Of a stretch of DNA of 41,119 bases, positions 10,022 through 41,119 are shown piece by piece. Below the pieces are notes generated by a model, which was not told where the DNA came from, made no database searches, and worked only from the letters and a program-made list of their open reading frames with translations. Source of the stretch: a virus (Duplodnaviria > Heunggongvirae > Uroviricota > Caudoviricetes). Location of the stretch: IMG/VR virus record IMGVR_UViG_3300043410_001642, positions 1-41,119 of that record. One strand, 5' to 3'. Numbering within the stretch: position 1 is the stretch's first letter; every line of letters begins with the position of its first letter. Made by a program: the position numbers and the translations under genes.

Positions 10022-11128
10022 ATGGTGTTTTGGGAAGGTGCTAATAGTAGTTCAGCTAGAAAGGTATTAATTATACCTAACATAACAAACCTAAAGAATT
10101 TAGAAAAAGATTCATTCATAGATGTAATCTATAATCATATAATCTCCCTCAATAAGGAGGGGGATTATTTTTTTCACTTAATCCTACCAAAAGCAGTAGG
10201 TAAATTAAATTTACCAAATGTTCAACAACATTTAGTTGATATTTCTGGAAACATTCTTGCAATGAGAGTTGTGTTTCCAATTGAAATAATGAAACTATTA
10301 AAGAATTTGGAATATGATGTAGTTTATTCTCATATGCCAGATTGGTTTCAGGTAGCAAGATTCACACAAAAAGACATAGTTGGGTATTCTCATTGGTTTG
10401 AAATGAGAAGTTGTAATGCCGAAGACCGTTTGGCTAATTTTAGAAATATGGTTGTGGCTTTGTATCAAGTTACCCGAATGAAATGTTGTTATCTTAATAC
10501 AAAAGAACAAAAAGATAGAATCATTGAAGAGGCAAAAGAATGGTTTAATGATAATGTTATTAATACATTAGAAGAGAAATTAGTAGTTTGGAATTTAGGA
10601 GTTCCTTCTGATAAAATATTAGATAAACCTTCAGAGGAAAAAGAAAATGTAATTGTATTCAATCATAGATGTATTGCAAATAAAAACTATTCTGGATTTA
10701 TTAAATTGATGAAAGAATATAGAGAAAGAAGACAGGATTTCGTTGTATGGCTTCCTCAATTAAGTGATACTCCGGAAGAGAGTTGGATGGATAATTCTAA
10801 ATTGGATAAAGAAGAATACTATAAGAAACTACAAAAATGTAAAGTAGGGGTTCAGATGAGACAAACACATTATGGTTGGAGTGTAGCTGCAACTGATTGT
10901 ATGATGAACGGAACTCCTATGATATTTCAAGAATCTGATTGTTACAAAGAGATAGACCCAACGGCACATTTCTTCAAATACAAAAAGGATTTCTTTGATA
11001 TGTTGGATAAATTCTTAGATGATGAAAGTTATAGAAAGGAATATGAATTAAAGGCGTTAGAGAGAAGCATTCAACTTTCTAACAACGATGATAAAATGAT
11101 TAAAGAACTACATAAACAATTGAATTAG
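10022..11128 (+). CDS. GT-B fold glycosyltransferase (candidate DNA-modifying enzyme)
   Basis: C-terminal IVFNHR...KNY..F, YYKKLQKCKVG, GWSVAATDCMMNGTP resembles the GT-B donor-binding domain; start set to ATG 10022 because the TTG 9968 extension spans the promoter. Confidence 0.65.
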   Translation: MVFWEGANSSSARKVLIIPNITNLKNLEKDSFIDVIYNHIISLNKEGDYFFHLILPKAVGKLNLPNVQQHLVDISGNILAMRVVFPIEIMKLLKNLEYDVVYSHMPDWFQVARFTQKDIVGYSHWFEMRSCNAEDRLANFRNMVVALYQVTRMKCCYLNTKEQKDRIIEEAKEWFNDNVINTLEEKLVVWNLGVPSDKILDKPSEEKENVIVFNHRCIANKNYSGFIKLMKEYRERRQDFVVWLPQLSDTPEESWMDNSKLDKEEYYKKLQKCKVGVQMRQTHYGWSVAATDCMMNGTPMIFQESDCYKEIDPTAHFFKYKKDFFDMLDKFLDDESYRKEYELKALERSIQLSNNDDKMIKELHKQLN

Positions 11129-27723: not shown

Positions 27724-28956
27724 ATGAGTAAATTTACGAAAAAGTTGTTCAGTTTAGGAGAACTTTATGTTTCAGATTTTATCAATGTAGATTCTGATGC
27801 AAGAGCAGGGAAACATGATATGACCCTTGTTATTGATGAGAGATATGGTGCAGCTCGTTTAGATAAGTGCACTCCAATACATTCTATGTTTGGAAAGTAT
27901 TGGTATAGAAGTGGAATTAACACAACTATGAGAAACGAATTAAAAGGTATCGTAGAAAGTGTTGAATCCGTTCACAAATTAAACGATGGTGATTTGTGGT
28001 TAGATATTGCATGTAACGATGGAACACTTTTAAGTTATGTTCCCTCTAATGTTAAGAAGTTGGGTATTGACCCTGCTGAAGATTCGTTCAAAGCAGAATC
28101 ATCTAAAATTGCTGATGAAGTAATTCAAGATTATTTTTCATTAGAAAGTTTTAAGCGTTCTAAGTTTAAGAAAAAGAAAGCAAGTGTAGTAACTTGTATT
28201 GCTATGTTCTATGATTTAGATGAACCTATCGGTTTCTTAAAGGATGTATCTAAAGTAATGGAAGATGATGGATTGTTTATTATTCAAATGAGTTATACTC
28301 CATTGATGATTAAACAATTGGCTTTTGATAACATTTGTCATGAGCATGTTTACTATTGGGGATTAACTTCTATGCAAAAGTTATTAAACAAAGCAGGATT
28401 AAAAGTAGTTGATGCTCAAGTAAATGATGTTAATGGCGGAAGTTTCAGATTATACATCAAAAAGAAGAAATCAAATGTAACTTCATTTGCAACTGCACCA
28501 TATAGAGATGTATGTGATGTAAGAGTTGAATCTTTGGCTAAATGGGAAAAAGGATTGAAATTGGATAAAGAAGATATTTGGGTAGATTTCTTTGCCAGAA
28601 TTGAAGCGTTAAAAGAACAGACTGTTAATTTCATAAAAGCGGAGAAAGCTAAAGGTAAAGTTATTTGTGGTTATGGTGCTTCTACAAAAGGAAATACCTT
28701 ATTACAATACTTTGGTTTAGATAATACTTTGATTGATGCAATTGCAGAAAGAAGTGAGTATAAATTTGGTTTGAAAACAATTGGAACTAATATCCCAATC
28801 AAATCAGAAGAAGAAGTAAGAGCAATGAACCCAGATTATATGTTAGTATTACCTTGGCACTTCATTTCAGAATTTATTAAAAGAGAAGATGAATTTTTAT
28901 CTAAAGGTGGTAAATTCATCGTTCCTTGTCCAACCTTTGAAATAATCGGAAAATAA
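27724..28956 (+). CDS. NDP-hexose 3-C-methyltransferase (NovU/TcaB9/EryBIII-type)
   Basis: Y.YRSG, LDIACNDG.LL, IAMFYD, FDNICHEH, GYGASTKGNTLL, LVLPWHF, GGKFIVPCP. Confidence 0.88.
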   Translation: MSKFTKKLFSLGELYVSDFINVDSDARAGKHDMTLVIDERYGAARLDKCTPIHSMFGKYWYRSGINTTMRNELKGIVESVESVHKLNDGDLWLDIACNDGTLLSYVPSNVKKLGIDPAEDSFKAESSKIADEVIQDYFSLESFKRSKFKKKKASVVTCIAMFYDLDEPIGFLKDVSKVMEDDGLFIIQMSYTPLMIKQLAFDNICHEHVYYWGLTSMQKLLNKAGLKVVDAQVNDVNGGSFRLYIKKKKSNVTSFATAPYRDVCDVRVESLAKWEKGLKLDKEDIWVDFFARIEALKEQTVNFIKAEKAKGKVICGYGASTKGNTLLQYFGLDNTLIDAIAERSEYKFGLKTIGTNIPIKSEEEVRAMNPDYMLVLPWHFISEFIKREDEFLSKGGKFIVPCPTFEIIGK

Positions 28957-28957
28957 T

Positions 28958-29581
28958 ATGAACAAACTATTAAATCAAAAAGAACATCAAAATTATCAAT
29001 CTGCTTTGCAATTGATGAAAGAACATTCTCCTGAAATGTTAGCAAGAAAAATTCCAGAAGCGTGTATTCAACAGGCATTTACATTGCAAACTGCTTTGGA
29101 TTTAACTCCAAAGGGAGGATTAGTATTATCTGCTGGAAGCTGGGAAGATACTGCTACTGAAAGTTTGAAAAAATTAGGATATGTTGTAACGGATGTAGAC
29201 CCGATGATTAATTCGGATCTTAAAACTTATTTTGATAACAACCCACAGCTACATAATAAAATTGATTCAGTAGTATCAACATCAGTTATAGAGCATGTTC
29301 AAAATGACGAAGAATTTATAGATTGTATTTGTAAATTATTAAAGAAGGGTGGATATGGAATTGTAACAATGGATTACAACAATGATTATTTAAATGGTAA
29401 TGTAACCAAACCAAACGAAGATGTTAGGTTATATACTGAATATGATTTGAGAGTGAGATTGAATTCGGTATTAGAACAAAATGGTTGTGAATTATTGAAC
29501 GCAGATTATAGTGGAACAAATGATTTCTGCTATGCTGGTCATTGGTACACATTTGCTACATTTGTATTTAAGAAAAAATAA
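28958..29581 (+). CDS. class I SAM-dependent methyltransferase
   Basis: VLSAGSWED motif I-like, STSVIEHV, LLKKGGYGIVT. Confidence 0.75.
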   Translation: MNKLLNQKEHQNYQSALQLMKEHSPEMLARKIPEACIQQAFTLQTALDLTPKGGLVLSAGSWEDTATESLKKLGYVVTDVDPMINSDLKTYFDNNPQLHNKIDSVVSTSVIEHVQNDEEFIDCICKLLKKGGYGIVTMDYNNDYLNGNVTKPNEDVRLYTEYDLRVRLNSVLEQNGCELLNADYSGTNDFCYAGHWYTFATFVFKKK

Positions 29582-29584
29582 TAA

Positions 29585-30247
29585 ATGAACGAGATATATA
29601 AATCGGAAACTGGTCTAGATAAGTGGATAAGAGAAAATGTATTCACTGATTATGAATATAAAGGTATTATGATAGAAGTAGGAGCGGCAACGCCGGAAAC
29701 TATTTCAAACTCATACCATTATAGAATAAATGGATGGAGAACGATTTGTATTGAACCAAATCCTTATTTCATAGAATTGCATAAAAAATCAAATTCTGAA
29801 GCTTATCAATATGCCTGTTCAGATGTTGATAAAAATGAAGTTGATTTTATAGTAGTAGGTAACGAAACGAATGATAGTGACTTAAATTATCATTCGTTTT
29901 CACACCTTGACACTACTGATATTTTAATAAATGGTGAAATAGCAGAAGATTGGAAGAATGTATATCATTCATCTGATAAGAAAACAATAAAAGTTAATGT
30001 TAGAAAACTTGATACTATTTTAACCGAATTAAATGTTGATAGGATAGATATATTAACAATTGATGTGGAAGGTAATGAAATGAATGTATTAAAAGGATTT
30101 GATATAGTAAAATATAATCCATCTATAATCGTAATAGAAAACATATCTAGACTTGATATTTTTAGAGAATTATTGAAGGAATATGGATATACTAATATTA
30201 TTACATTAGGGGGATATGATGAGATTTATGTAAATGATAAAAAATAG
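29585..30247 (+). CDS. FkbM-family methyltransferase
   Basis: IEVGAA, GWRTICIEPNP, V.VRKLDTIL, IDILTIDVEGNEMNVLKG, P.IIVIE. Confidence 0.88.
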   Translation: MNEIYKSETGLDKWIRENVFTDYEYKGIMIEVGAATPETISNSYHYRINGWRTICIEPNPYFIELHKKSNSEAYQYACSDVDKNEVDFIVVGNETNDSDLNYHSFSHLDTTDILINGEIAEDWKNVYHSSDKKTIKVNVRKLDTILTELNVDRIDILTIDVEGNEMNVLKGFDIVKYNPSIIVIENISRLDIFRELLKEYGYTNIITLGGYDEIYVNDKK

Positions 30248-30250
30248 TTT

Positions 30251-30601
30251 ATGATTAAGATAAGTTTAGACGAAGCATATGTGTTTGATTTATTATCCAT
30301 TTATTCGGTTAAAATAGATAATAGCGATGGTGATAAAAGAGAACAAAGTTTTAAAAACTATAATTTATTGTGTAAAGAAATACAAAATCAAATAGGTGTA
30401 GCTAAATTTACTCAAATTATTAATAGTAATGAATATAATAATTTAAAAATTGCTAACCAATTAGTTTTTAATTTAGTTGATAGAGCAAATGAAAATGAAT
30501 TGGCAAAAGAAACGGCTGGTGCTAATTATGAAAGATATCTTAAAAAAATAGAATTACAAAAGAAATTTTTTAACACTAATGTAACTGAAATTAAACTATG
30601 A
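30251..30601 (+). CDS. helical hypothetical protein (DUF6165-like, tentative)
   Basis: ISLDE...D.LSI..VK pattern, coiled-coil character, precedes GT9-like gene. Confidence 0.45.
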   Translation: MIKISLDEAYVFDLLSIYSVKIDNSDGDKREQSFKNYNLLCKEIQNQIGVAKFTQIINSNEYNNLKIANQLVFNLVDRANENELAKETAGANYERYLKKIELQKKFFNTNVTEIKL

Positions 30602-31338
30602 GTGAAATCAAATCATATTTGCAAGGAGGTAAATTAGGAGATTTAATTCATAGTTTAGTTGTATGTAAATTCAACTATGAATTCTTTAATTACAAAGCTG
30701 ATTTATATATCGGTAATATAGGTGATAATTTTGAAAAGGGATTGGAATATACCTATAATGATTTAAAGCCGGTATTGGAACAACAAGAGTGGTTAAATTC
30801 ATTTGGTATATACACTGACCAACATATTGATATCAACTTAACAAAGTTTAGAGATAGTGGTTATCTATACACCACAAATTGGATTGAAATATATTTTGGT
30901 GAATTTTTTAACGGAATGCCTGCACCAAAGGAATATAGTTGGATTACTTTACCAAAAGATGAAAACTTACAAAATACTTTATTGATAAATCGTTCTATGA
31001 AACCAATGACCGAAAAGGTCACTGAATTCTATAAACAAGTAATAGATGAAAATAAAGATTTAGATAAAGCGTTTATATGTTTTGATGAAAATCAATATAA
31101 TAATTTTACACTTAGAAATGAATGTAGAATGATTAAAGTAAATAGTTTATATGATTTCTTTCAAAAAATAAATAGCTGTAAATTATTCTTAGGTAATCAA
31201 TCCGGTCCAATGGCTTGGGCTACATCTATGAATGTACCAAGAATAATAGAATTATTAGCAAGAACGGATAATGTTCATTATATAAAGGATACCGAATATT
31301 ATTCAAATTTTAAATGGTTTCAAGGAGATACTGCATAA
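30598..31338 (+). CDS. GT9 (heptosyltransferase)-like glycosyltransferase
   Basis: GGKLGDLIHSL N-terminal motif and INSCKLFLGNQSGPMAWA..MNVP C-terminal motif. Confidence 0.7.
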   Translation: MSEIKSYLQGGKLGDLIHSLVVCKFNYEFFNYKADLYIGNIGDNFEKGLEYTYNDLKPVLEQQEWLNSFGIYTDQHIDINLTKFRDSGYLYTTNWIEIYFGEFFNGMPAPKEYSWITLPKDENLQNTLLINRSMKPMTEKVTEFYKQVIDENKDLDKAFICFDENQYNNFTLRNECRMIKVNSLYDFFQKINSCKLFLGNQSGPMAWATSMNVPRIIELLARTDNVHYIKDTEYYSNFKWFQGDTA

Positions 31339-32501
31339 TGAGTAACATATCAACACTAGTAGGATTAAAAAACAATTTAGAATATTCTAAAAAGTTTTAT
31401 ACAAGATTTAGGGAAGTTTACCCAACGGAAGAATTGTGTTTTGCCAGTTATGGTTCTGATGATGGAACTAATGAATGGTTGGATTCTTTGACTGATGAAA
31501 ATTTAAAATATTACTATTCAAAAGATAAGAAAACATTTTCAGATACATTCAACAAATGTGCCGAAATAGCAACCAAAGAATATATAGTGTTTTGTCATAA
31601 CGATATTGTTATGTTAGAAGGCTGGTTGGAGAACATAGAAAAACATTTAAACAAATCAACCGCGGTAACATATACTACCATAGAACCTCCTATATTTTCC
31701 GATCATGAAAGGCCTGGAAAAATAATAAGAGATTTTGGTTTAGAATTTGAAGATGTAAATTATGAAGAATTAGAAAAGTTTGGGAAGGAAACACAAGAAA
31801 AATATAAAAACCAAACAACGGAAGGAAATGCATTTTTTATAGCACAACATAGAGGTATGTATTTGGCAATTGGTGGTATGGATAATTTGTATTCCCCAAT
31901 GTTTTGTGAAGATGATGATATTCTTTTTAGATTAAAACTATTGGGTATTCGTACAATAGTTAGTTTGGATAGTATAGTATATCATTTCGTATCAAAAACA
32001 TCTCGTTTCTCTGAAGAACATAAAACTAATACTCAAGAAATAGAACGAAAATCTAATTTGAACAAAGTTAGAAAATGGGGTAGAATAGGTTTAACCACTG
32101 ATTTACACACTTATGATATTGGTTTAATTATACCAAATTGTAATGAAGATATATTGAGAGCATTAGAGCCATTTGTATCGACTATATTTGTAGATTGTGA
32201 TTTTATTAATTATATAAATTCAGAGCAACCTAATACTAAAATAAATCTATCAAGAAAGATAAAACCAATCAATAGTGTTAGGGATAATGATATTATACTT
32301 AGATGTAATGATGTATCTAAATTTACAAATGATGATTTTGGGTTGATTGCGAATCTTTCTAACTTTATATCAAATGAACAGGTTAAGCCTAATACAACAT
32401 TTGATTTTCAAAATTTCACTTTTAATGTGAAATCTAAGAATACATACGAACACAAATTAGTAAGTCTTAAATCAGATTATTATTTAGACAAATGTATTTA
32501 A
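31338..32501 (+). CDS. GT2 family glycosyltransferase with C-terminal extension
   Basis: GSDDGT, FCHNDI, GGMD..Y.P.FCEDDDI..RL, VYHFVSKTSR; start set to ATG 31338 overlapping upstream TAA. Confidence 0.85.
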   Translation: MSNISTLVGLKNNLEYSKKFYTRFREVYPTEELCFASYGSDDGTNEWLDSLTDENLKYYYSKDKKTFSDTFNKCAEIATKEYIVFCHNDIVMLEGWLENIEKHLNKSTAVTYTTIEPPIFSDHERPGKIIRDFGLEFEDVNYEELEKFGKETQEKYKNQTTEGNAFFIAQHRGMYLAIGGMDNLYSPMFCEDDDILFRLKLLGIRTIVSLDSIVYHFVSKTSRFSEEHKTNTQEIERKSNLNKVRKWGRIGLTTDLHTYDIGLIIPNCNEDILRALEPFVSTIFVDCDFINYINSEQPNTKINLSRKIKPINSVRDNDIILRCNDVSKFTNDDFGLIANLSNFISNEQVKPNTTFDFQNFTFNVKSKNTYEHKLVSLKSDYYLDKCI

Positions 32502-32923
32502 TATCCTTAAGAGGAAACATATTAGGAGTAGACGAAAAGAAAGAAAATAAACCCTATCAGATACAAGAAGTTATCAGGATGGGGTTTCATTGCTGGGTAG
32601 ATGTATGGTGGCATAATGACCAATTTTATTTAGGAACTAATGAACCATATTATCCAATTAAACCATCATTCCTTAACATCTTTGCTCTTTGGTGTAATGC
32701 AATGAATTTTGATACCCTTATTAAATTAAAAGAACAAAGAGCTCCTCATTATTTTCAATGGCAAGGAGACCCGTTGCTTACAAATACCGAACATATTATT
32801 ACCGATATTCCTTTGGAAATTGAAATTGATAATACTATTTTAATTACTGATGAATATCAATATAGTGAAATAGGATTAAAAGGTATAATTTCGGAGAATA
32901 TTGCTTCCTTTCAAATAGGTTAA
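32492..32923 (+). CDS. GDPD/PLC-like phosphodiesterase-fold protein, catalytic residues substituted
   Basis: ISLRGN..G....EN...I...GF....DVW....YLG.NEP aligns by eye with ISHRGN/DVEIDVW/LGHDEP family. Confidence 0.55.
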   Translation: MYLISLRGNILGVDEKKENKPYQIQEVIRMGFHCWVDVWWHNDQFYLGTNEPYYPIKPSFLNIFALWCNAMNFDTLIKLKEQRAPHYFQWQGDPLLTNTEHIITDIPLEIEIDNTILITDEYQYSEIGLKGIISENIASFQIG

Positions 32924-32934
32924 ATATCACTTTC

Positions 32935-32983
32935 ATATATTTATCATTGTAGTTATGTCTAACCTAAAAAAGATATATTTATA
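32935..32983 (+). promoter_or_regulatory. two ATATATTTAT motifs, candidate phage late promoter
   Basis: Copies at 32935-32944 and 32973-32982 in the intergenic gap at the boundary between glycan cluster and modular-protein region. Confidence 0.45.
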
Positions 32984-32989
32984 TACACT

Positions 32990-33730
32990 ATGGATATAAA
33001 AGAACAAATTAACCTATTTTTAGAACAAAACACCCCATCTGATACCGAATCATGGAATCAGATTGTTTCTGAAGCAAAAAATAAATTTGATGTTTACCCA
33101 TCTGCATATGCAAATGGATGGATTATTAGAGAATATATCAACGCTGGTGGTGCATTTGTAAACGAAGATGAAGACCCTCAACATGTAGCACAGGCTCTAC
33201 CTCAAACAAAAGAACTTAAAGGTAAATTAATTGGTGAAAAGTTAATGCAATATTTCAGTGAAATTGGATTAAAGCATGCTTGTTATCAAAATGAGGGTGG
33301 AGAAGTAAAGGTAATCGGATTAAATAAAGACCAGGTTAAGGAAGCAATTGATAAAATTGTGAAAGAATGGGTTAGTAATAAAATGCAAGAAATTGGATTA
33401 CCAGCAGGAGTTGGATTAAACCTTCCAGGTGGTTCAATCAATGGAGCACCATCGGAAGATGATGTTGATTCAATGAAAGATAAGTTAGGTAGAAATGAAT
33501 CAATTGATGGTAGAGGGCAAGCGTTATTAATGACGTTTAAAGATATAGTAAAAAATCATTCTTCATTAAAAGTAAAAGATTATGGAAAAACAACTTTAGT
33601 AGATGTTCAATCTGCTAATGTGGTTTTGAAGTTATATGATGCATTATCGGATAAGAATAAAGAATCATTGTTTAAAATGCCAGTTCCAAAGATGATACAA
33701 ATGGCTTGGCATGTAATGGGTAAAAAATAA
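32990..33730 (+). CDS. modular hypothetical protein, putative internal head protein
   Basis: AKNKFDVYPSAYANGW..Y..AGG module (DUF5872-like, tentative) flanked by FLE/VSE/VNE junctions. Confidence 0.6.
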   Translation: MDIKEQINLFLEQNTPSDTESWNQIVSEAKNKFDVYPSAYANGWIIREYINAGGAFVNEDEDPQHVAQALPQTKELKGKLIGEKLMQYFSEIGLKHACYQNEGGEVKVIGLNKDQVKEAIDKIVKEWVSNKMQEIGLPAGVGLNLPGGSINGAPSEDDVDSMKDKLGRNESIDGRGQALLMTFKDIVKNHSSLKVKDYGKTTLVDVQSANVVLKLYDALSDKNKESLFKMPVPKMIQMAWHVMGKK

Positions 33731-33744
33731 AATAAGATAGTAAG

Positions 33745-34938
33745 ATGAATATGAATTTAAAAGGAATTATGAATAGTTTAGGTGCACAACCTGGACAAGT
33801 AGTATCTGACCCGTTTGCAAGAGCATTTGCACCTGCGCCGGTTGTTAAAGAAGAAACAATAAATGAAGAGGATCATGAAGTATCTATGGCTCAGAAAACA
33901 TTAGATGATATAATCAAAAATGCAACTGAATTAAAAGCTAAAATAGGTGAAGCTGAAACGGATTTACCAGCTTGGATTCAGGATCATATCAGTAATTCTG
34001 CAAACTATATTGACCAAGCAGCAAGTGGATTCTATAAAAATGAATCAATAAACGAAGAGGAAATTAAATGGAATGCAGTTGAAAATGCAATCATTAATTT
34101 TCTAAAAATGAATACAAAGATTTTAGATAAAAGAGTTAAAGATAGAGATACTGCAGGAGTTAAAGGTGGGTTAAAATCTATTATTAGTGGTTTAACTAAT
34201 GCACAGAGAAGTTTGAAATTAGAATCAATAAACGAAGTATCATATACTGTCAAAGCAAAAAATGCGTATGAATTTGTAAATGGTGCATATTCAGTTTTAG
34301 GTGCTTATTTAAGAGATGAAAAATTAGATAGTAGTGCAAAAGCTGCTCTTCAAAGAGTGGTAAAAGATTTAGAAGGATTGAGAAAGTATTTTTTCTCTAT
34401 GAAAGATGAATCAATAAACGAAGCATTCAAACATATTATATCAGTAGAAACTCCAACTCAAGTAGTTTCTAAACCAATAGCGGCACAAATTGAAAAATTA
34501 GCTAGACAAGGTGTTAGAGCATCTGAAATTGGTTTGAAAATGGGATTTGTAGGAAACCAAAAAGCAGCAACCGATGCTTTCCAAAAAGTAAAAAATCAAA
34601 TTTATTTTAAATTAAATAAATCTGAATCAGTAAACGAAGCAAGATTAACTGATATTGTTAATTCTATCATTGAAACTCCTGTAATTGGTAAAATGGTAGT
34701 TAATGCTCCTTCAACTACTCAACAAGTATCTGAAGCAAAAAAATATGATGTTGGAGCAGGGTTTATGGGAAATGGTTTAACTATTTGGAATAGAGCTGAA
34801 GAAGAACATGGAGATTATAGAATCATTGCACACATTGACCCATATGGTAAAATTAGTATTAGAGATAAAGAAATCCCATCTAATGTTATGAATATGATTA
34901 AAGATTGGGCTGAGGCAATTAAAAAAGGCGATAAATAA
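33745..34938 (+). CDS. modular polyprotein with five E[ST][IV]NE junctions, putative internal head protein
   Basis: ETINE, ESINE x3, ESVNE separate unrelated 60-72 aa segments; first module DHEVSMA...LPAWIQ. Confidence 0.7.
   Translation: MNMNLKGIMNSLGAQPGQVVSDPFARAFAPAPVVKEETINEEDHEVSMAQKTLDDIIKNATELKAKIGEAETDLPAWIQDHISNSANYIDQAASGFYKNESINEEEIKWNAVENAIINFLKMNTKILDKRVKDRDTAGVKGGLKSIISGLTNAQRSLKLESINEVSYTVKAKNAYEFVNGAYSVLGAYLRDEKLDSSAKAALQRVVKDLEGLRKYFFSMKDESINEAFKHIISVETPTQVVSKPIAAQIEKLARQGVRASEIGLKMGFVGNQKAATDAFQKVKNQIYFKLNKSESVNEARLTDIVNSIIETPVIGKMVVNAPSTTQQVSEAKKYDVGAGFMGNGLTIWNRAEEEHGDYRIIAHIDPYGKISIRDKEIPSNVMNMIKDWAEAIKKGDK
33853..34639 (+). repeat. five in-frame 16-bp direct repeats GAA(T/A)CA(A/G)TAAA(C/T)GAAG
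   Basis: Copies start at 33853, 34042, 34222, 34408, 34624; three are identical GAATCAATAAACGAAG; periods 189/180/186/216 nt. Confidence 0.9.
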
Positions 34939-35258
34939 TGGATACACAAAACATTTATACCGTCTTAGTAACAATAGTGACTGTTTTAGGAGGTGCATCT
35001 GCGTGGAGATTCTATGAGAAAAGAGCAATGCATAAGGAAAGAGATGAAGATTTCATCAGACACGATTGTAAAGACCGAATTTCTAAATTAGAAGCCCTTT
35101 TAGAAGCATCTGCAAAAGAAAAAGATGACTTAAGAGTAATGGTATTAAACCTTACTAAAGAAGTAGCGGCGTTAAGTGTAAAGGTTGAATTCCTTACAAA
35201 AGAAAACGAAGATCTTCATAAAAAAACTAAAACATCAAGAAAAGTAATAAACGGATAA
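34938..35258 (+). CDS. single N-terminal TM plus coiled-coil protein (holin/antiholin-like architecture, unproven)
   Basis: IYTVLVTIVTVLGGASAW hydrophobic helix followed by heptad-rich region. Confidence 0.5.
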   Translation: MDTQNIYTVLVTIVTVLGGASAWRFYEKRAMHKERDEDFIRHDCKDRISKLEALLEASAKEKDDLRVMVLNLTKEVAALSVKVEFLTKENEDLHKKTKTSRKVING

Positions 35259-35259
35259 G

Positions 35260-35805
35260 GTGATAAAACTTACTGAAATAATTTCTAGAAGTTTATTCTT
35301 AGAGGATAAAAAGTTAAGAGTATTTGATTTTGATGATACTCTTGTTAAAACTACATCCTTTATTTATATTACTCATAAAGGAGGAGGAAAATCTAAATTA
35401 ACTCCTGGACAATATGCAGTATATAAAGAAAAGCCGGGAGACCAATTTGATTTTAGAGATTTTAATGCAGTTAATAATCCAAAGGTAATCAAAGGTTATT
35501 TTGAATTATTAAAAAGAATGGCAGCCGATTCAAGTAAAGCAGTATATATCTTAACTGCTAGAGCTGCATATCAACCCGTATATAATTTTATTAGAGATAG
35601 TGGTATTAAAGATGTTTTCGTTGTTGCGTTGGGTGATAATAACCCAGAATCAAAAGCTGATTGGATAGAGAAGGAAATTCAAAGAAATGGGTATGATAAT
35701 ATTTATTTCGTAGATGATTCTGCTAAAAATGTAGATGCGGTAAAGAGAAGATTAAACAAATACCCTACTATTAGAAAGAAAGTCCAATTGGTTAAACATG
35801 GTTAA
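35260..35805 (+). CDS. HAD-superfamily phosphatase
   Basis: RVFDFDDTLV (DxDxT), YILTAR, K...IE, IYFVDDS..NV; GTG start. Confidence 0.85.
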   Translation: MIKLTEIISRSLFLEDKKLRVFDFDDTLVKTTSFIYITHKGGGKSKLTPGQYAVYKEKPGDQFDFRDFNAVNNPKVIKGYFELLKRMAADSSKAVYILTARAAYQPVYNFIRDSGIKDVFVVALGDNNPESKADWIEKEIQRNGYDNIYFVDDSAKNVDAVKRRLNKYPTIRKKVQLVKHG

Positions 35806-36496
35806 GAAAGAGATATTAGAAAACGGATGTTATACTGGCAATTTAGCCGAAATCAATCCTTCCTTATTAGATACATTAGAAACCTTAAGCGAATTAAGGA
35901 ATCATGAATTATACACAAGAGTAACCCATTCATATAGTAAAGCGGTAGATTCTGAATCCACTTTTAATAAAACATTTGAAGAAGCGGATGCGGTTAGAGA
36001 ACATCACTTAAACTTAAAGAAAAAAGGAGAACCTATTTGGCAAGTATTCTACACATATAATAATGAAAATGAAAAGAGTTCAAAGCTATTACATAAATAC
36101 ATACCTACTATAAGGGATTTGTTTATGGAGATAGTTCGTTATTGTTATGGAGAGGATATTGCAAGTAAAGTGTGGGAGGTTAATGGTAGTAATATAAACC
36201 TTACAAATTTTAGAAAGGGATGTTTTATTGAGAATCATGCCGATGGAGGAGGTAAGAGAATGGTGTGTAATATTCTAATATACACTAATCATGATTGGGA
36301 AGAAGGATTCGGAGGAGAGTTGGTATTGGAGGAAAAATTCAAACAACAACCCAAATTTGGTAATTTTGCAGTGTTGGATTTTATGACACATAACCCATTT
36401 CACTTAGTTACACCAATTGAAAAGGAGGGAATCAATAGATTTGCTCTACTTACAGGAATTTTATACGAAGAAAATTACTTTAATTCAATCATTTAA
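35798..36496 (+). CDS. 2OG-Fe(II) oxygenase (prolyl-hydroxylase-like)
   Basis: ENHADG (HxD), GGEL, FHLVTP (distal His), RFAL (2OG Arg). Confidence 0.85.
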   Translation: MVKKEILENGCYTGNLAEINPSLLDTLETLSELRNHELYTRVTHSYSKAVDSESTFNKTFEEADAVREHHLNLKKKGEPIWQVFYTYNNENEKSSKLLHKYIPTIRDLFMEIVRYCYGEDIASKVWEVNGSNINLTNFRKGCFIENHADGGGKRMVCNILIYTNHDWEEGFGGELVLEEKFKQQPKFGNFAVLDFMTHNPFHLVTPIEKEGINRFALLTGILYEENYFNSII

Positions 36497-36525
36497 TATT
36501 TATATATACTTAAAATAACATAACA

Positions 36526-36783
36526 ATGACAGTTTCTGAATTCAAATTAGAAAATCACAAAAGTATCACCGCAGAAGTGGCTGAGAATCAAGCATTATAC
36601 GATGGAACACACGCTGAAGAGGGTGATAAGTTGATAGATTGCTTTTTAGTATCAGAAGACGGTGAAGAAAAATTAATATACATAATCCCATCTCAATTAG
36701 CAGATTTTGAAATAGTTGAAGATTTGGAGTATGATGTATTCATTCCGTTATCAGACCAAAAATTCAAAGTTAAACTTAAATAA
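36526..36783 (+). CDS. acidic hypothetical protein, paralog A
   Basis: 85 aa; aligns end to end with next ORF; TATTTATA upstream at 36497. Confidence 0.7.
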   Translation: MTVSEFKLENHKSITAEVAENQALYDGTHAEEGDKLIDCFLVSEDGEEKLIYIIPSQLADFEIVEDLEYDVFIPLSDQKFKVKLK

Positions 36784-36785
36784 GA

Positions 36786-37061
36786 ATGACAGTATTAGAA
36801 TGGAAATTAGAAAATTCAGTAGTAGTAACCGATGATAACTATGAGATGTTAAACACAACACAAATGTTATATAGTGGTGCTGAAATAACAAAAGGTTCTA
36901 AATTTATGGATGCAATATGCGAAACCGAAGAATTTGGACCTAAGACAGTTTACTTTTTAGATAGTGAATTGTATGAATTATTTGATATCGTAGATAATCC
37001 TGAATGGGATGATATGACTCCAGTAGCTACTCAAAAATTCACAGTAAAACCAAAAGCATAA
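36786..37061 (+). CDS. acidic hypothetical protein, paralog B
   Basis: 91 aa; shared MTV.E.KLEN, LY.G, G.K..D, F.IV...E.D...P...QKF.VK. Confidence 0.7.
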   Translation: MTVLEWKLENSVVVTDDNYEMLNTTQMLYSGAEITKGSKFMDAICETEEFGPKTVYFLDSELYELFDIVDNPEWDDMTPVATQKFTVKPKA

Positions 37062-37064
37062 GAA

Positions 37065-38114
37065 ATGCCAGCAGTAAGTAAAGCACAACAAAGATTTATG
37101 GGTATGGTGCATGCAGCCGATAAAGGCGAAACACCAGCATCCCCTGAAGTAGCAAAGGTATCAGCTTCTATGAAAGATTCAGATGCGAAAGATTTTGCTT
37201 CTACTAAACACAAAGGATTGCCTGATCATGTTAAAGAAGCAGTTAAGGAAATCGTAAGAGGTGTATTAAGAGGAGAAGGAGCATTTGGTTCAGTAGGTGG
37301 TGGAGCAGAAGATGCTAGAAACCTAATGGAGATGAGCCCTAATGATGTTCACTTTAAAACTATTATTAAATTATATGATAGAGGTGGTTCATTTACTAAA
37401 AAGAAAGTAGGAGTAGTGGTATCTAGAAATCCTAGAGCATCAAGAAATACAATTATTGATGACTTGAAAGATATGGATTATCATGAAATTCTTAATGCTG
37501 AAGATGAATTAGGTATAAAAGAAATAGTTGAAAAACGAATCGCAGAACAATCGGTAAACGAAGCTAAATATCCAACTGACTTAAAAGTGGGTTCGGTAAT
37601 TTTGGGGCAAGGATTCACAATGTTAAAAGGAATTGAAGGCGGAAAATACTACAAAGTTGTTGCAATAGATGATTATTCGGCAACATTAGTTCCATCTGAT
37701 AAGAATGGTAATGTAAAAGGTTCATCAAAAGTTAGACATAAATTAGATTCAATTGAAGGTGGTATTAGAACTGCTAAGAGAGGTGATGAAAACGGAATTG
37801 TTGTAATAAAAGAATCAGTAACCGAAGAACATGATTGTGGATGTAATGAAGATTATGATTGTGGATGTGGTGGATTACATGAACACCATATCAATGAAGA
37901 TATAAATGCGGATGCAAATGGTATAGCAGGTTTAACTGCTTCTAGAGCAAATGCGGTTAAAGATTTCATAGAAAAGCATAAATTAGATTCAAACAAATTA
38001 TATCAGTTCTTAAAAAAGGGTGGATTGAAAGATAAAATGGATTTCGTAACTGCATTAGTTGGGAAGCCGGGTAATTCTATTCAAACAAAACTAATAAAGC
38101 AATTTAGTAAATAA
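37065..38114 (+). CDS. modular polyprotein with N-terminal DUF3008-like domain
   Basis: MPAVSKAQQRFMG...DFASTKHKGLP N-terminus; junctions QSVNE, ESVTE, HINE; DLKVG..KYYK module. Confidence 0.7.
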   Translation: MPAVSKAQQRFMGMVHAADKGETPASPEVAKVSASMKDSDAKDFASTKHKGLPDHVKEAVKEIVRGVLRGEGAFGSVGGGAEDARNLMEMSPNDVHFKTIIKLYDRGGSFTKKKVGVVVSRNPRASRNTIIDDLKDMDYHEILNAEDELGIKEIVEKRIAEQSVNEAKYPTDLKVGSVILGQGFTMLKGIEGGKYYKVVAIDDYSATLVPSDKNGNVKGSSKVRHKLDSIEGGIRTAKRGDENGIVVIKESVTEEHDCGCNEDYDCGCGGLHEHHINEDINADANGIAGLTASRANAVKDFIEKHKLDSNKLYQFLKKGGLKDKMDFVTALVGKPGNSIQTKLIKQFSK

Positions 38115-38115
38115 G

Positions 38116-38394
38116 ATGAAATTAAAAAATTTAATAGAAGTAAAATACTTAAACGAAGCATCATCAGTAGACCTTACGGAAATACCCGTAACGCAAGCTA
38201 AACAAGTATTGGCATTTGAAAAGGTATTAGGAGGAAAACATACCGATTTATGGGATGGTATTCACGGATATATTGTTTCAATTAAAGTACCTAATGGAAA
38301 AGAAAGATTGATGAGTGATGATTTAAAGAAATTACTTTCTTTAAAAATTCGTTGGATTGAGATAACTGGACAAGACATATATTTAGGATTCTAA
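38116..38394 (+). CDS. hypothetical protein with MKLKNL...LNE leader
   Basis: 92 aa, N-terminus shared with neighbours. Confidence 0.65.
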   Translation: MKLKNLIEVKYLNEASSVDLTEIPVTQAKQVLAFEKVLGGKHTDLWDGIHGYIVSIKVPNGKERLMSDDLKKLLSLKIRWIEITGQDIYLGF

Positions 38395-38405
38395 TAAACA
38401 TTACA

Positions 38406-39683
38406 ATGAAATTAAAACATATACTTAATCCATCTCCTATTGTAGAATCTGACCTTAAGGTTGGAAATATGTATATGGTGCATGGGTATCCTCTTCTAAA
38501 AGGATTATTCCCAAACAAATACTATAAAATTCATTCTATTGATGGAGATGATGTAACTCTTCAACAAGTTAATCAATTTGGTAAAATAACCAATTTATCA
38601 AATGCTCCAGTAACACATAAATTATCTTCAATTAAGGCATCAGTTCAAAGTATTGGAAATGGTGATGCAAATGGTTTAGAATTAACAAACGAAGCAACTG
38701 CATCTGAAATTGTGAAAGATTTGGATAAAGTTAGAAATGATTTAATTAAAAAAGTAGATGTATTAATTGCTAAAAAGAAGAAACTTTATTCTAATGTAGA
38801 TATTGAATCACCAATGAGTGCTGATGAGAAACAATTAGATAAAGATATACAATCTATATTTTCACAAATTCAACAAATAATTCAACAAAAAAGAAGTTTG
38901 AAAAGTGAATCCGTAAAAGAAAATAAAATGATGAAATTAAAAGATGTCTTAAAAGAATCTGCTGGGTTTAACAAAAAGATAAAGAGTGATTTGGATTCAT
39001 ATTTAAAAGATTTTAAAAGTGGTACTCCTACACATCAATGGGCTGTTAAAGAAATATTAAAAAGTGCATTAACTGATGCAAATTTTCATAGTGCAGCTAA
39101 GAAAGTAGATTCATTATTTTCTAGAGCTAAATACGAAGAAGATTCTGCTAAAGAAAAATCATATCAAAACGCGGTAGAAAGAAAAGGTAGAGAAATTGCT
39201 AATAAAGCAAAATGGGATGGATATGAAATCATAGATGCTATATCATTTTATACATCAATGACAATAGGTCATCCACTTGGACAAAAAATAAATTCATTAA
39301 AGGAAGGAACAATTCCTCAACATATTAATAAAGTTGAATCTAAATTATCACTTAAAACTCTTATGAACGAAGCAAAGTTTCCGGTATATCACAAAACATA
39401 TACATCTGCTATTAGTTCAGCATTAGACTGGGTTGAAAAAATGGGGTATGAATATGATGAAGAAGAAACTGCGAGAGAAATAGGAATGGGGCCAAAAAAA
39501 CCATCCGAAGGTAAAACAAATAGATTTTCTATTTCATTAACTAAAAAAGGTAAGCCGGTAAAACAACATTTACAAATACAGGTTTACAATATGGGAACAT
39601 TCAAAAGAAACTCTGATGGTTCTAAGACTAGAAGTATGTGGGGTGGACAAAATGAATATGAATTAAATTGTTATATAGGGTAG
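38406..39683 (+). CDS. modular polyprotein, putative internal head protein
   Basis: MKLKHIL..IVE leader; junctions LTNE, ESVKE, VLKE, LMNE; first module homologous to one in 37065-38114; ends YELNCYIG. Confidence 0.7.
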   Translation: MKLKHILNPSPIVESDLKVGNMYMVHGYPLLKGLFPNKYYKIHSIDGDDVTLQQVNQFGKITNLSNAPVTHKLSSIKASVQSIGNGDANGLELTNEATASEIVKDLDKVRNDLIKKVDVLIAKKKKLYSNVDIESPMSADEKQLDKDIQSIFSQIQQIIQQKRSLKSESVKENKMMKLKDVLKESAGFNKKIKSDLDSYLKDFKSGTPTHQWAVKEILKSALTDANFHSAAKKVDSLFSRAKYEEDSAKEKSYQNAVERKGREIANKAKWDGYEIIDAISFYTSMTIGHPLGQKINSLKEGTIPQHINKVESKLSLKTLMNEAKFPVYHKTYTSAISSALDWVEKMGYEYDEEETAREIGMGPKKPSEGKTNRFSISLTKKGKPVKQHLQIQVYNMGTFKRNSDGSKTRSMWGGQNEYELNCYIG

Positions 39684-39730
39684 GTAATAAAGGTTATGCT
39701 AGATTGTAACATTAAAAAAGTTTTAACAAA

Positions 39731-39859
39731 ATGGCAAAAGCAAAAGGTTCAGCATCATCTCAAAAAGTTACATTTGGTAAAAGAGGAAAGGGTAAATACA
39801 AAAAAAGTTATGGCCCTAAAGCTCAAAAACCAAAAAGATATCGTGGTCAAGGAAGATAA
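39731..39859 (+). CDS. 42-aa highly basic small protein (not in ORF track)
   Basis: MAKAKGSASSQKVTFGKRGKGKYKKSYGPKAQKPKRYRGQGR, A-rich start context, followed by terminator. Confidence 0.7.
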   Translation: MAKAKGSASSQKVTFGKRGKGKYKKSYGPKAQKPKRYRGQGR

Positions 39860-39890
39860 CAATATATTAGAGAGATAGACAAATTCCGAA

Positions 39891-39920
39891 GGGGGGCGGG
39901 GGGTATCCTCTTCCCCTTTT
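39891..39920 (+). terminator. intrinsic terminator-like hairpin
   Basis: GGGGGGCGGGGGG-TAT-CCTCTTCCCC can pair with G-U wobble and one bulge, followed by TTTT; conspicuous G/C patch in an AT-rich window. Confidence 0.6.
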
Positions 39921-39964
39921 CCCTTTGTCCTCCAACCTAAATTTTTTTGATAGTATTTATAGAT

Positions 39965-40414
39965 ATGATAAAATTAACACAATTATTAAAAGAAGCACAT
40001 GAGCACGATAGAGATATGGTCGTTGGTGTAGCGGAGATTCTTCGTATGGTAGATGATATTGATAATAGAGATGATATCGCCGATGAGATGATGGATAAAT
40101 TTGATAGAGAGGGAGTTGATTACGATGTTGATGAATTTCTTCAAATGTGTGGGTTGAGTTCATTGGAAGAGGCCGCTCCGATGTTAAATAAACCTAAAGT
40201 ATCAAAAGCACCAAAAGGTGTTAAGAAACAACCTCTACCTCAAAGTGAAAAACCAACGGATGTAACGGATAAGATTAAGAATGCACAAACTCGTTTGAGT
40301 ATAATTCGAAAGCAATTAACTCTCCCACATACATCGGATGCAAAGACGAAATTACAAAAGAGAATCATCAAAACACAGGATACAATAAAGAACCTAAACG
40401 CAAAGAAAGGGTAA
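39965..40414 (+). CDS. two-module (acidic then basic) protein with MIKLTQLLKE leader
   Basis: Start set to ATG 39965 just after TATTTATA 39954-39961; LEE junction between modules. Confidence 0.7.
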   Translation: MIKLTQLLKEAHEHDRDMVVGVAEILRMVDDIDNRDDIADEMMDKFDREGVDYDVDEFLQMCGLSSLEEAAPMLNKPKVSKAPKGVKKQPLPQSEKPTDVTDKIKNAQTRLSIIRKQLTLPHTSDAKTKLQKRIIKTQDTIKNLNAKKG

Positions 40415-40471
40415 AAAATTTATCGTTTTTTACACCCATTAGATATATATAATAGAACAAACACTATTAAA

Positions 40472-41119
40472 ATGGGTGAAAATGAAAATGAAGATAAGCC
40501 GGTAGAAAAGGTATATGTCTTCAATAGGAATTACAAAGAATATTACGAAAAGAAAGCAAGAGAAGAATCGGAAAAGAATTGGAGACCGCCGGCTCAAGGT
40601 GGGATTCTTCGTAGAGGTAAATTATCTCGTCCCCTATTACAATCGGAAATAGAAGATATGCAAAAACAAGCACAATCGGCAAAACATTGTGCCCGTTTGT
40701 TAGGAGTATCATATCCAACCTATAAGAAGTATGCCAAAATGTATGGTATATTTGATAATTGTAAGAACGAAGCGGGAGTTGGAATTAAGAAGTTAAATAA
40801 GGGTAGAAAGAGTTGGGCTTTGGAAAACATCTTAGAAGGGAACAACCCATCATATCCTAATTGGAAATTAAAAAGAAGGTTACTTCAAACGGGTTATATG
40901 CCCCAAGTATGTGCGAATTGTGGATACGATGAATGTAGAGTAACTGATAACAAAGTTCCACTTCTTTTGGATTATATGGATGGAAATCGTAAAAACCACA
41001 AATGGGATAACCTCCGTATGTTGTGTTACAATTGTTGGTTTCAGATAAATGGGGATTTGTTTGGAAGAGCAATGAGAAATGTGAAGAAGGATGCGTGGGA
41101 TTATCAATACATACATAAA
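40472..41119 (+). CDS. HTH plus HNH-like zinc-binding protein, partial (runs off window end)
   Basis: Own translation: SAKHCARLLGVSYPTYKKYAKMYG (HTH), CANCG...LLLDYMDGNRKNHKWDNLRMLCYNC (HNH-like); open for 216 codons to window end. Confidence 0.8.
   Translation, partial: MGENENEDKPVEKVYVFNRNYKEYYEKKAREESEKNWRPPAQGGILRRGKLSRPLLQSEIEDMQKQAQSAKHCARLLGVSYPTYKKYAKMYGIFDNCKNEAGVGIKKLNKGRKSWALENILEGNNPSYPNWKLKRRLLQTGYMPQVCANCGYDECRVTDNKVPLLLDYMDGNRKNHKWDNLRMLCYNCWFQINGDLFGRAMRNVKKDAWDYQYIHK

Follow-up and report, generated by a model that had tools for sequence, protein, structure and literature searches.

The stretch of DNA analysed here (the window, 41,119 nt) is the first 41 kb of a 141,368-bp virus contig of IMG/VR (IMGVR_UViG_3300043410_001642), which is 74% complete according to CheckV, has a G+C content of about 30% and carries nearly all of its genes on the plus strand. 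Its right part, at positions 32990–40414, is occupied by a cluster of open reading frames (ORFs A to L; Table 1), some of which string together unrelated small modules separated by a five-residue linker, ESVNE or ESINE, or start with a short leader similar to the capsid targeting sequence of bacteriophage T4. The left 21 kb of the window encodes a T4-type replication set, namely a gp32-like single-stranded-DNA-binding protein, UvsX, a DnaB-like helicase, NrdA/B, a family-B DNA polymerase, a sliding clamp, a clamp loader and exonucleases, which is followed by a glycosyltransferase block and then by the polyprotein cluster. The closest cultured phage, as judged by the polymerase, shows only 49% identity, and Bacteroidota-style signal peptides were recognized at the N-termini of many ORFs downstream in the contig; these features are in line with an uncultured T4-like phage with hosts of the flavobacteria type. 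The original prediction, made from the letters of the window, placed the cluster in a late region. This was not borne out, because the cluster follows replication and glycosyltransferase genes and T4-type late promoters are not enriched: the T4 late promoter TATAAATA has nine matches in the contig against 10.7 expected; of the nine, only one is on the coding strand, and it falls outside the region.

In our own ORF calls on the 141-kb contig (229 plus-strand ORFs, 42,632 amino acids (aa)), the pattern ES[IV]NE occurs four times, all four in ORF B (at residues 100, 160, 222 and 294), against about 0.1 expected in all of the ORF calls by hand arithmetic from rough residue frequencies. The shorter pattern S[IV]NE occurs six times, five of them within the cluster region. 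At the DNA level the linker forms a 22-nt direct repeat in six copies, and 10 of the 30 plus-strand occurrences of the heptamer AACGAAG in the contig fall within the 7.4-kb cluster. The ORFs and their N-termini are as first described, and the clustering of the motif is far beyond chance. The leader of ORF L fits the T4 capsid targeting sequence position by position and is the sole match to the strict leader pattern in the contig (the called ORF reaches upstream to a TTG at 39947, and the ATG at 39965 gives MIKLTQLLKE), while ORFs D, I and J carry longer variants ending in [LIV]-x-E. The leader DNA is repeated three times, in ORF I, at the start of ORF J and in the internal leader of ORF J, and no other ORF of the contig was found to start with MIKLT or MKLK. 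The looser leader that had been proposed for ORF A is present, but it recurs inside larger proteins of relatives immediately before the same module, so it may be part of that domain; in the related contig G001 the module lies between ESINE and ESVNE within an 825-aa polyprotein.

Table 1. Features of the polyprotein cluster in the window. A slash marks a predicted cut, and cut positions are residue numbers.
Feature	Position (nt)	Strand	Description
ORF A	32990–33730	+	246 aa; N-terminus MDIKEQINLFLE; DUF5872-like module (residues 13–59; match below the Pfam cut-off) between LFLE/Q and FVNE/D; 187-aa tail
Junction FVNE/D of ORF A	33155–33166	+	codons GTA AAC GAA
ORF B	33745–34938	+	397-aa polyprotein; conserved N- and C-terminal modules, three variable cassettes of 60–72 aa; predicted cuts after 41, 104, 164, 226 and 298
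Linker repeat 1	34042–34056	+	GAATCAATAAACGAA, ESINE
Linker repeat 2	34222–34236	+	15-mer identical to repeat 1, ESINE
Linker repeat 3	34408–34422	+	15-mer identical to repeat 1, ESINE
Linker repeat 4	34624–34638	+	GAATCAGTAAACGAA, ESVNE
ORF C	34938–35258	+	106 aa; hydrophobic N-terminus, coiled coil; 'hol-like' PHROG 2658; conserved neighbour, not assigned as cargo
ORF D	35260–35805	+	GTG start; N-terminus MIKLTEIISRSLFLE; 15-residue leader ending in LFLE (nt 35260–35304), then an intact HAD phosphatase domain
ORFs E, F, G	35798–37061	+	2OG-Fe(II) oxygenase, then a pair of small paralogues (85 and 91 aa); conserved within the cluster
ORF H	37065–38114	+	349-aa polyprotein, DUF3008 at its head
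Predicted cuts of ORF H	37551–37562; 37815–37826; 37887–37898	+	after 166 (SVNE), 254 (SVTE) and 278 (HINE), in this order
ORF I	38116–38394	+	92 aa; N-terminus MKLKNLIEVKYLNE; 14-residue leader (nt 38116–38157) ending in LNE/A, then one module
ORF J	38406–39683	+	425-aa polyprotein; N-terminus MKLKHILNPSPIVE; leader nt 38406–38447
Predicted cuts of ORF J		+	after 14, 96 (nt 38682–38693), 172 (nt 38910–38921), 184, 300 (nt 39294–39305) and 322 (nt 39360–39371)
Internal leader in ORF J	38922–38957	+	NKMMKLKDVLKE/S
ORF K	39731–39859	+	42 aa, extremely basic (isoelectric point 11.3)
ORF L	39965–40414	+	149 aa; 10-residue leader MIKLTQLLKE/A (nt 39965–39994)

The segments between the junctions belong to separate BLAST families, as the original prediction had it, with the exception of a beta-rich module that is common to ORFs H and J. 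Each chain would give three to seven fragments, leaders and short spacers counted, with charges ranging from acidic to basic, and polyproteins of relatives contain up to ten linkers. After its leader, ORF L consists of an acidic half (net −15), an SLEE/A site (nt 40160–40171) and a basic half (net +15), and a cut at that site would free two pieces of opposite charge.

The gp21 prohead protease of T4 cuts after L/I-x-E, and in the capsid targeting sequence that the T4 internal protein IPIII carries, positions 4 and 7 matter for targeting and positions 8 and 10 for processing (PMC9026906). In MIKLTQLLKE, positions 4 and 7 are hydrophobic, position 8 is L and position 10 is E. For the junctions, we located the modules by BLAST and read the residues just upstream of them, without any selection on the motif. 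Ahead of module B4, P1 is Glu and P3 is L, I or V in all 24 instances, which include variants such as ETITE, ETIME and RKINE; ahead of module B5, P1 is Glu in 30 of 33 and P3 is V, I or L in 30 of 33, with N, S, A, K and H all occurring at P2. In six instances out of six (five relatives and the window copy) the module of ORF I starts directly after [LI]-[NT]-E, although the leaders ahead of it differ in length and sequence. A pattern with P3 and P1 fixed and P2 free equals the published specificity of gp21. P3 is V, I or L nearly throughout, and the phiKZ-type motif S/A-x-E is not the one found at the junctions.

AlphaFold2 models of ORFs B and J were built with alignments of relatives, and in both models the better-modelled stretches are the individual modules. 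All five predicted cuts of ORF B, and five of the six of ORF J (after residues 14, 96, 172, 184 and 322), fall in stretches in which the predicted local distance difference test score (pLDDT) is low (below 50); the remaining one, after residue 300 of ORF J, is at a helix end two residues before a low-pLDDT stretch. A 115-residue domain of ORF J with block-mean pLDDT of about 81–95 starts soon after the internal leader site. According to these models, the junctions would lie between folded domains and not inside them, the latter being an outcome that had been named beforehand as one that would refute the prediction.

Relatives of these polyproteins are numerous. A scan of viral contigs with ORF B gave 36 loci, and its family has 802 relatives in the database at E ≤ 1e-5, none of the 120 listed ones being annotated with a Pfam domain. 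The N- and C-terminal modules are conserved among these relatives and the cassettes between them differ; the matched ranges of ORF B start or stop at residues 98–102, 160 and 224–226, that is, at linker positions. From 24 unique polyproteins, 79 distinct linker contexts were drawn by the pattern S-[IVLM]-[NQ]-E, so that the S-x-N/Q-E core is invariant by the design of the search; Glu stands before the pattern, at P5, in 70 of the 79 contexts, and the residue after it is A, E, S or G in 62 of them. One upstream module joins many different downstream modules in these contexts, and vice versa. When 141 unique proteins were split at the linker and the pieces clustered at 80% mutual coverage, 101 module families in 77 architectures were obtained, and single module families had up to eight left and 13 right neighbour families. 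(A first clustering with loose coverage, which chained most modules into one component, was replaced by this one.) Comparison of the loci shows that relatives have gained, lost and reordered modules exactly at the linker. Beside the in-frame linker there seems to exist a conserved stop-and-restart connector: in loci L009 and L010 the final module of the ORF B homologue is an ORF of its own behind such a short connector, the upstream ORF ending in ESVN(T/K)SLRLTKLK, after which come a stop codon, a few spacer nucleotides and an ATG (positions 10700–10800 in both loci). Five different module families have endings of the type LRL[KT][KN][LIV]K. The downstream part of ORF J is likewise a separate ORF in locus L026; it has 232 aa and starts with the leader that is internal in ORF J (MKLKNILTE/S).

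The linker is conserved not only as a peptide. In 71 ES[IV]NE junctions, compared with the rest of the same genes, the codon consensus is GAA TCR RTA AAC GAA: the Val codon is GTA in 57 of 57 cases (background 38%), Asn is AAC in 59 of 71 (35%), Ser is TCA or TCG in 64 of 71 (44%) and Ile is ATA in 11 of 14 (22%). This bias persists in different module contexts and between phages with core proteins of only about 50% identity. Since the exchange of modules takes place precisely at this site, the 15-mer is most simply read as a short stretch of homology used in in-frame recombination, and the data suggest that the 15-nt linker doubles as such a joint; this second, DNA-level role was absent from the original prediction. 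Two junctions of ORF B have Ile where relatives have Val (one of them was checked against the closest relative, L009), and the DNA of both is identical to that of the first ORF B junction, which in these two cases hints at conversion within the gene.

The head genes were sought next to these loci. On the window contig, neither a prohead protease (by the PF03420 profile) nor head genes (by tblastn with T4 gp18 to gp24) were found; since the contig is 74% complete and lacks head genes, the head module must sit in the missing quarter of the genome, and the failure to find the protease on the contig would reflect the missing module and not an absence from the phage. The search for a gp21-type protease proposed in the original prediction thus gave nothing in the contig itself and gave a Peptidase_S77 in each of the six related contigs of sufficient length: one above the Pfam cut-off in each of the near-complete (92–98%) contigs G001, G002 and G003, and others in the fragments G011, G012 and G013. 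In six of these six contigs, homologous polyprotein genes lie at most about 2 kb from the protease gene. G001, whose replication module is syntenic with that of the window contig (38–82% aa identity), has TerL first in its locus L014, then Portal_T4, a pair of ORFs, Peptidase_S77, polyproteins of 289 and 467 aa, a ribosomal-S21-like ORF, the acidic scaffold protein and a Gp23-family capsid protein. The S21 homologue between the polyprotein and scaffold genes (L014:12256–12537) matches its Pfam family with E = 1e-12. Among loci whose ORFs were read, polyprotein genes are located between the portal and the scaffold or capsid genes in L014, L022 and L038.

The capsid protein, the scaffold and the protease C-terminus bear the same leader or site in L014 and L022. 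In G001 the capsid protein starts with MKINNILNE/S, the scaffold with MKSDLLKE/A, and the protease has GVINE/S near its C-terminus; the internal leader of ORF J reads on as LKE/SAGFNKK and the G001 capsid protein as LNE/SAGFNKR. An alignment of T4 gp23 with this capsid protein did not extend to the N-terminal propeptide, and an internal VSE/A site at residue 60 of the latter is a guess. Only three G001 proteins have at least two linker motifs, all of them in the first 27 kb together with the terminase, portal, protease and capsid genes, and of seven G001 proteins that match the strict leader pattern five are encoded in that same region.

Leaders were also found on enzymes. The DxDxT strand of the HAD phosphatase in ORF D starts at about residue 22. 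Residue 3 of its G001 orthologue (57% identity) aligns to residue 17 of ORF D, so that the orthologue lacks a leader, beginning only two residues ahead of the domain; close relatives of the window keep one, ending in SLFVE or SLFTE. The phosphatase appears to have gained its leader in the window lineage. A cytidylyltransferase-like protein of G001 (27911–30910, minus strand) bears a T4-type leader, a similar protein of methylophage Melnitz starts with MKKFSEIIE/A and the NMNAT of cyanophage S-SCSM1 with MKSFLQFLKE/A. In these three distant aquatic T4-like phages (G001 27911–30910; L007:821–2773; L058:194–1423), cytidylyltransferase- or NMNAT-like enzymes thus share a T4-type leader ending in x-E before S or A.

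The same cyanophage provides a link to virions. The N-terminal 68 residues of ORF H are 68% identical to ORF93 of S-SCSM1, which, according to the accessible text of the S-SCSM1 paper, is one of 45 proteins detected by mass spectrometry in CsCl-purified virions (PMC9602691). The gene for ORF93 lies in a cluster annotated as virion proteins, by a holin-like gene, a primase gene and nrdA. The NMNAT was detected in the virions as well, and the same text states that NMNAT-like proteins recur in cyanophage virion proteomes and leaves this unexplained (PMC9602691). To judge from its sequence, the T4-type leader on the S-SCSM1 NMNAT may offer an explanation.

For the functions of the modules, the searches gave little. 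Pfam and PHROGs found only DUF3008, DUF5872, HAD and the 2OG oxygenase in the cluster, with no function for a module and no match to the T4 internal-protein or Alt families. Foldseek searches with the ORF J model against PDB and BFVD returned nothing at E ≤ 0.001; BFVD fold matches to polyvalent proteins had E-values of 0.03 or worse and are not significant. ESM Atlas look-ups of two modules gave no function, and one of the two also exists as stand-alone phage proteins of 97–110 aa. The original suggestion that the modules are a payload injected with the DNA, possibly against host defences, is therefore unsupported by Pfam, PHROGs, Foldseek or the ESM Atlas.

Taken together, these observations are best explained, with a probability of roughly 0.65 in our estimate, by polyproteins that are targeted to the head, cut by the prohead protease and shuffled as cargo. 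By analogy with T4, each chain would be brought into the assembling prohead either by a short N-terminal leader like MIKLTQLLKE, in which positions 4, 7 and 8 are hydrophobic and position 10 is Glu, or by a dedicated N-terminal module such as DUF3008 in ORF H and the module beginning MNLKGIM in ORF B. A Peptidase_S77 of the gp21 type would then cut after the Glu of each [V/I/L]-x-E junction, preferably E-S-V/I-N-E followed by A, S, G or E, and free folded modules of about 50–190 residues, the HAD phosphatase among them. With the linker DNA acting as recombination homology, every new combination of modules would stay both translatable and cuttable. A further step is possible but doubtful, namely that the linker is a dual code, of which the 15 nt are a joint for swapping single cargo modules between co-infecting phages and the peptide is the cutting site, so that both together form a combinatorial, population-level generator of diversity for small DNA-delivered proteins, for example counter-defence factors.

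Several points weigh against this explanation. Portal, prohead protease, scaffold and capsid genes are all absent from the window contig, and as this contig has no head module the protease of the phage is inferred from relatives; seven related fragments that were tested have no protease either, and in the window lineage the cluster is away from any head gene. The computational tests named with the original idea of capsid-targeted, gp21-cut polyproteins were passed, that for the protease in relatives, but ORFs B and H, the two largest polyproteins besides ORF J, do not have a 10-residue leader. [ILV]-x-E is short and common (731 occurrences in the plus-strand ORF calls), so the motif alone proves little, and P1' is Glu or Val at some junctions, which has no counterpart among the T4 N-termini compared. 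Overall confidence in the models is low (mean pLDDT 53 for ORF B and 66 for ORF J). The silent-site conservation is not accounted for by a protease site, and since the junction instances are related by descent, binomial P values for it are too small and overstate their independence.

Among the alternatives, the one that survives best, although we regard it as unlikely, is that the chains are a processed core or scaffold filler of the prohead, targeted and cut in the same way, whose fragments leave the capsid or serve only assembly (size control, charge balance), none of them acting in the next host. T4 gp22, gp67 and gp68 are each cut into multiple fragments by gp21 (PMC9026906), the polyprotein genes of relatives sit among protease, scaffold and capsid genes, and no function can be recognised for many of the modules, which are small and helical. 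However, the three relatives whose head modules were read have an acidic, gp22-like scaffold gene of their own, close relatives differ greatly in their modules, as would not be expected of a structural core, and the leader is borne by enzymes, here by the HAD phosphatase and in other phages by NMNAT-like proteins.

Less likely still would be a linker that serves only for recombination and as a flexible spacer, with proteins that act uncut as multidomain proteins in the infected cell and a likeness to a protease site that is incidental. The 15-mer conserved at silent sites, the module exchange exactly at the linker and the position of the cluster outside the head module in the window lineage speak for this account. 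Against it, the protein still has an aliphatic P3, Glu at P1 and a free P2 where the DNA consensus is lost, the capsid protein and scaffold of relatives have leaders that end with the same site, polyprotein genes adjoin the protease gene in all six contigs that carry one, and one homologue is virion-associated (PMC9602691). As for a chance or low-complexity product of an AT-rich genome, in which short Glu-containing motifs are frequent (G+C about 30%), four of four pentapeptides in one ORF, 79 linker contexts, 802 database relatives and the module-anchored reading of the junctions already refute it.

The remaining features of the region can be described briefly. In ORF H, a 25-residue acidic spacer between two predicted cuts (37827–37901) contains a tandem duplicated HDCGC/YDCGC; a similar Cys-rich stretch is found in Melnitz gp20, and the spacer may bind metal. 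ORF K has 68–70% identical copies at the same place in four related clusters, and has neither a leader nor a known family. A leader on the oxygenase (ORF E, 35798) was considered and rejected, because relatives do not retain x-E there. The two tandem paralogues after it (36526–37061) start with MT(V/I)SEFK(L/I)EN and MKVSEWKLEN, with K-[LI]-E-N kept; both copies (starting at 36526 and 36786) are retained in L023, L024 and L026 and one copy in L010, and they match no family. The ORF directly after the cluster (40472–41119) has paired Cys-x-x-Cys, looks by eye like an HNH-type endonuclease and has a 39%-identical relative elsewhere in G001. Rfam recognized no family in 32000–41119, and a tRNA search of the window found none.

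In T4, proteins are loaded into the head behind a short address label and freed from it by the head protease, and each gene encodes one such protein. The capsid targeting sequence of IPI, IPII, IPIII and Alt is removed by gp21 (PMC9026906, PMC3012670), and the system described here shares with the T4 internal proteins a leader some 10 residues long, whose positions 4 and 7 are hydrophobic and whose processing site is at 8 and 10, an L/I-x-E site (here a predicted one), diverse cargo behind a conserved leader and a Peptidase_S77 (here in relatives). It differs in that many modules occupy one reading frame, joined by a nearly invariant five-residue linker with DNA fixed at silent sites, that some chains use a folded N-terminal module instead of a leader, and that in the window lineage the genes are located elsewhere than the head genes. 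The sequences are not similar to those of the T4 internal proteins, and the likeness is one of working and not of homology.

Polyvalent proteins, which phages and conjugative elements encode (Iyer et al. 2017, PMC5512222), likewise have many unrelated domains per polypeptide in combinatorial architectures, and are likewise predicted to accompany the DNA inside the capsid and to be split there or later into individual products (PMC5512222). Their definition, 2–15 unrelated domains in a phage with portal-terminase packaging, applies here as well, portal and terminase genes being present in relatives. However, polyvalent proteins carry large enzymatic and anti-restriction domains, often with a built-in metallopeptidase, whereas the modules here are mostly of 50–130 residues and have no such domains: of the signature domains (MuF, metallopeptidase, ArdC-N, helicases, methylases and others) none was recognized, Pfam giving only DUF3008, DUF5872 and HAD. 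A further difference is that here the prohead protease would cut in trans, and at a linker that is fixed. In the giant phages phiKZ, 201phi2-1 and SPN3US, a gp21-related protease cuts head and inner-body proteins after Glu at several sites per protein, and abundant ejection proteins are packaged with the DNA (PMC9026906, PMC10052503). The phiKZ motif has a small P3 (S/A-x-E), in contrast to the V, I or L found here (PMC9026906), and the multiple cuts in giant phages mostly remove propeptides and do not release successive folded modules; neither a conserved linker nor module shuffling is reported for them (PMC9026906, PMC10052503).

A counterpart in position is the cluster of S-SCSM1 (ORF90–97, including NMNAT), which in the accessible text of its description is likewise away from the head module and by replication genes (PMC9602691). 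Like the window cluster it contains a DUF3008 protein (the homologue of the ORF H head) and an enzyme with a T4-type leader, but most of its units are separate genes and it has no ESVNE linker; the leader is unmentioned in that text (PMC9602691). In the searchable literature we found no phage polyprotein cut by a prohead protease, no linker-joined polyproteins and no paper on DUF3008, and, apart from a T4 review, nothing that links the capsid targeting sequence to cyanophages or to aquatic T4-like phages.

If the proposed explanation is true, tailed phages would have a polyprotein strategy, in which one reading frame delivers up to about ten different small proteins and relatives reshuffle them at a fixed joint. 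The conservation at silent sites would tie protein processing to a mechanism of recombination, and the presence of enzymes such as NMNAT in cyanophage virions would be explained. Leader and linker together would also be a simple sequence rule for the prediction of capsid cargo in uncultured aquatic T4-like phages, and could be used to package foreign proteins in them.

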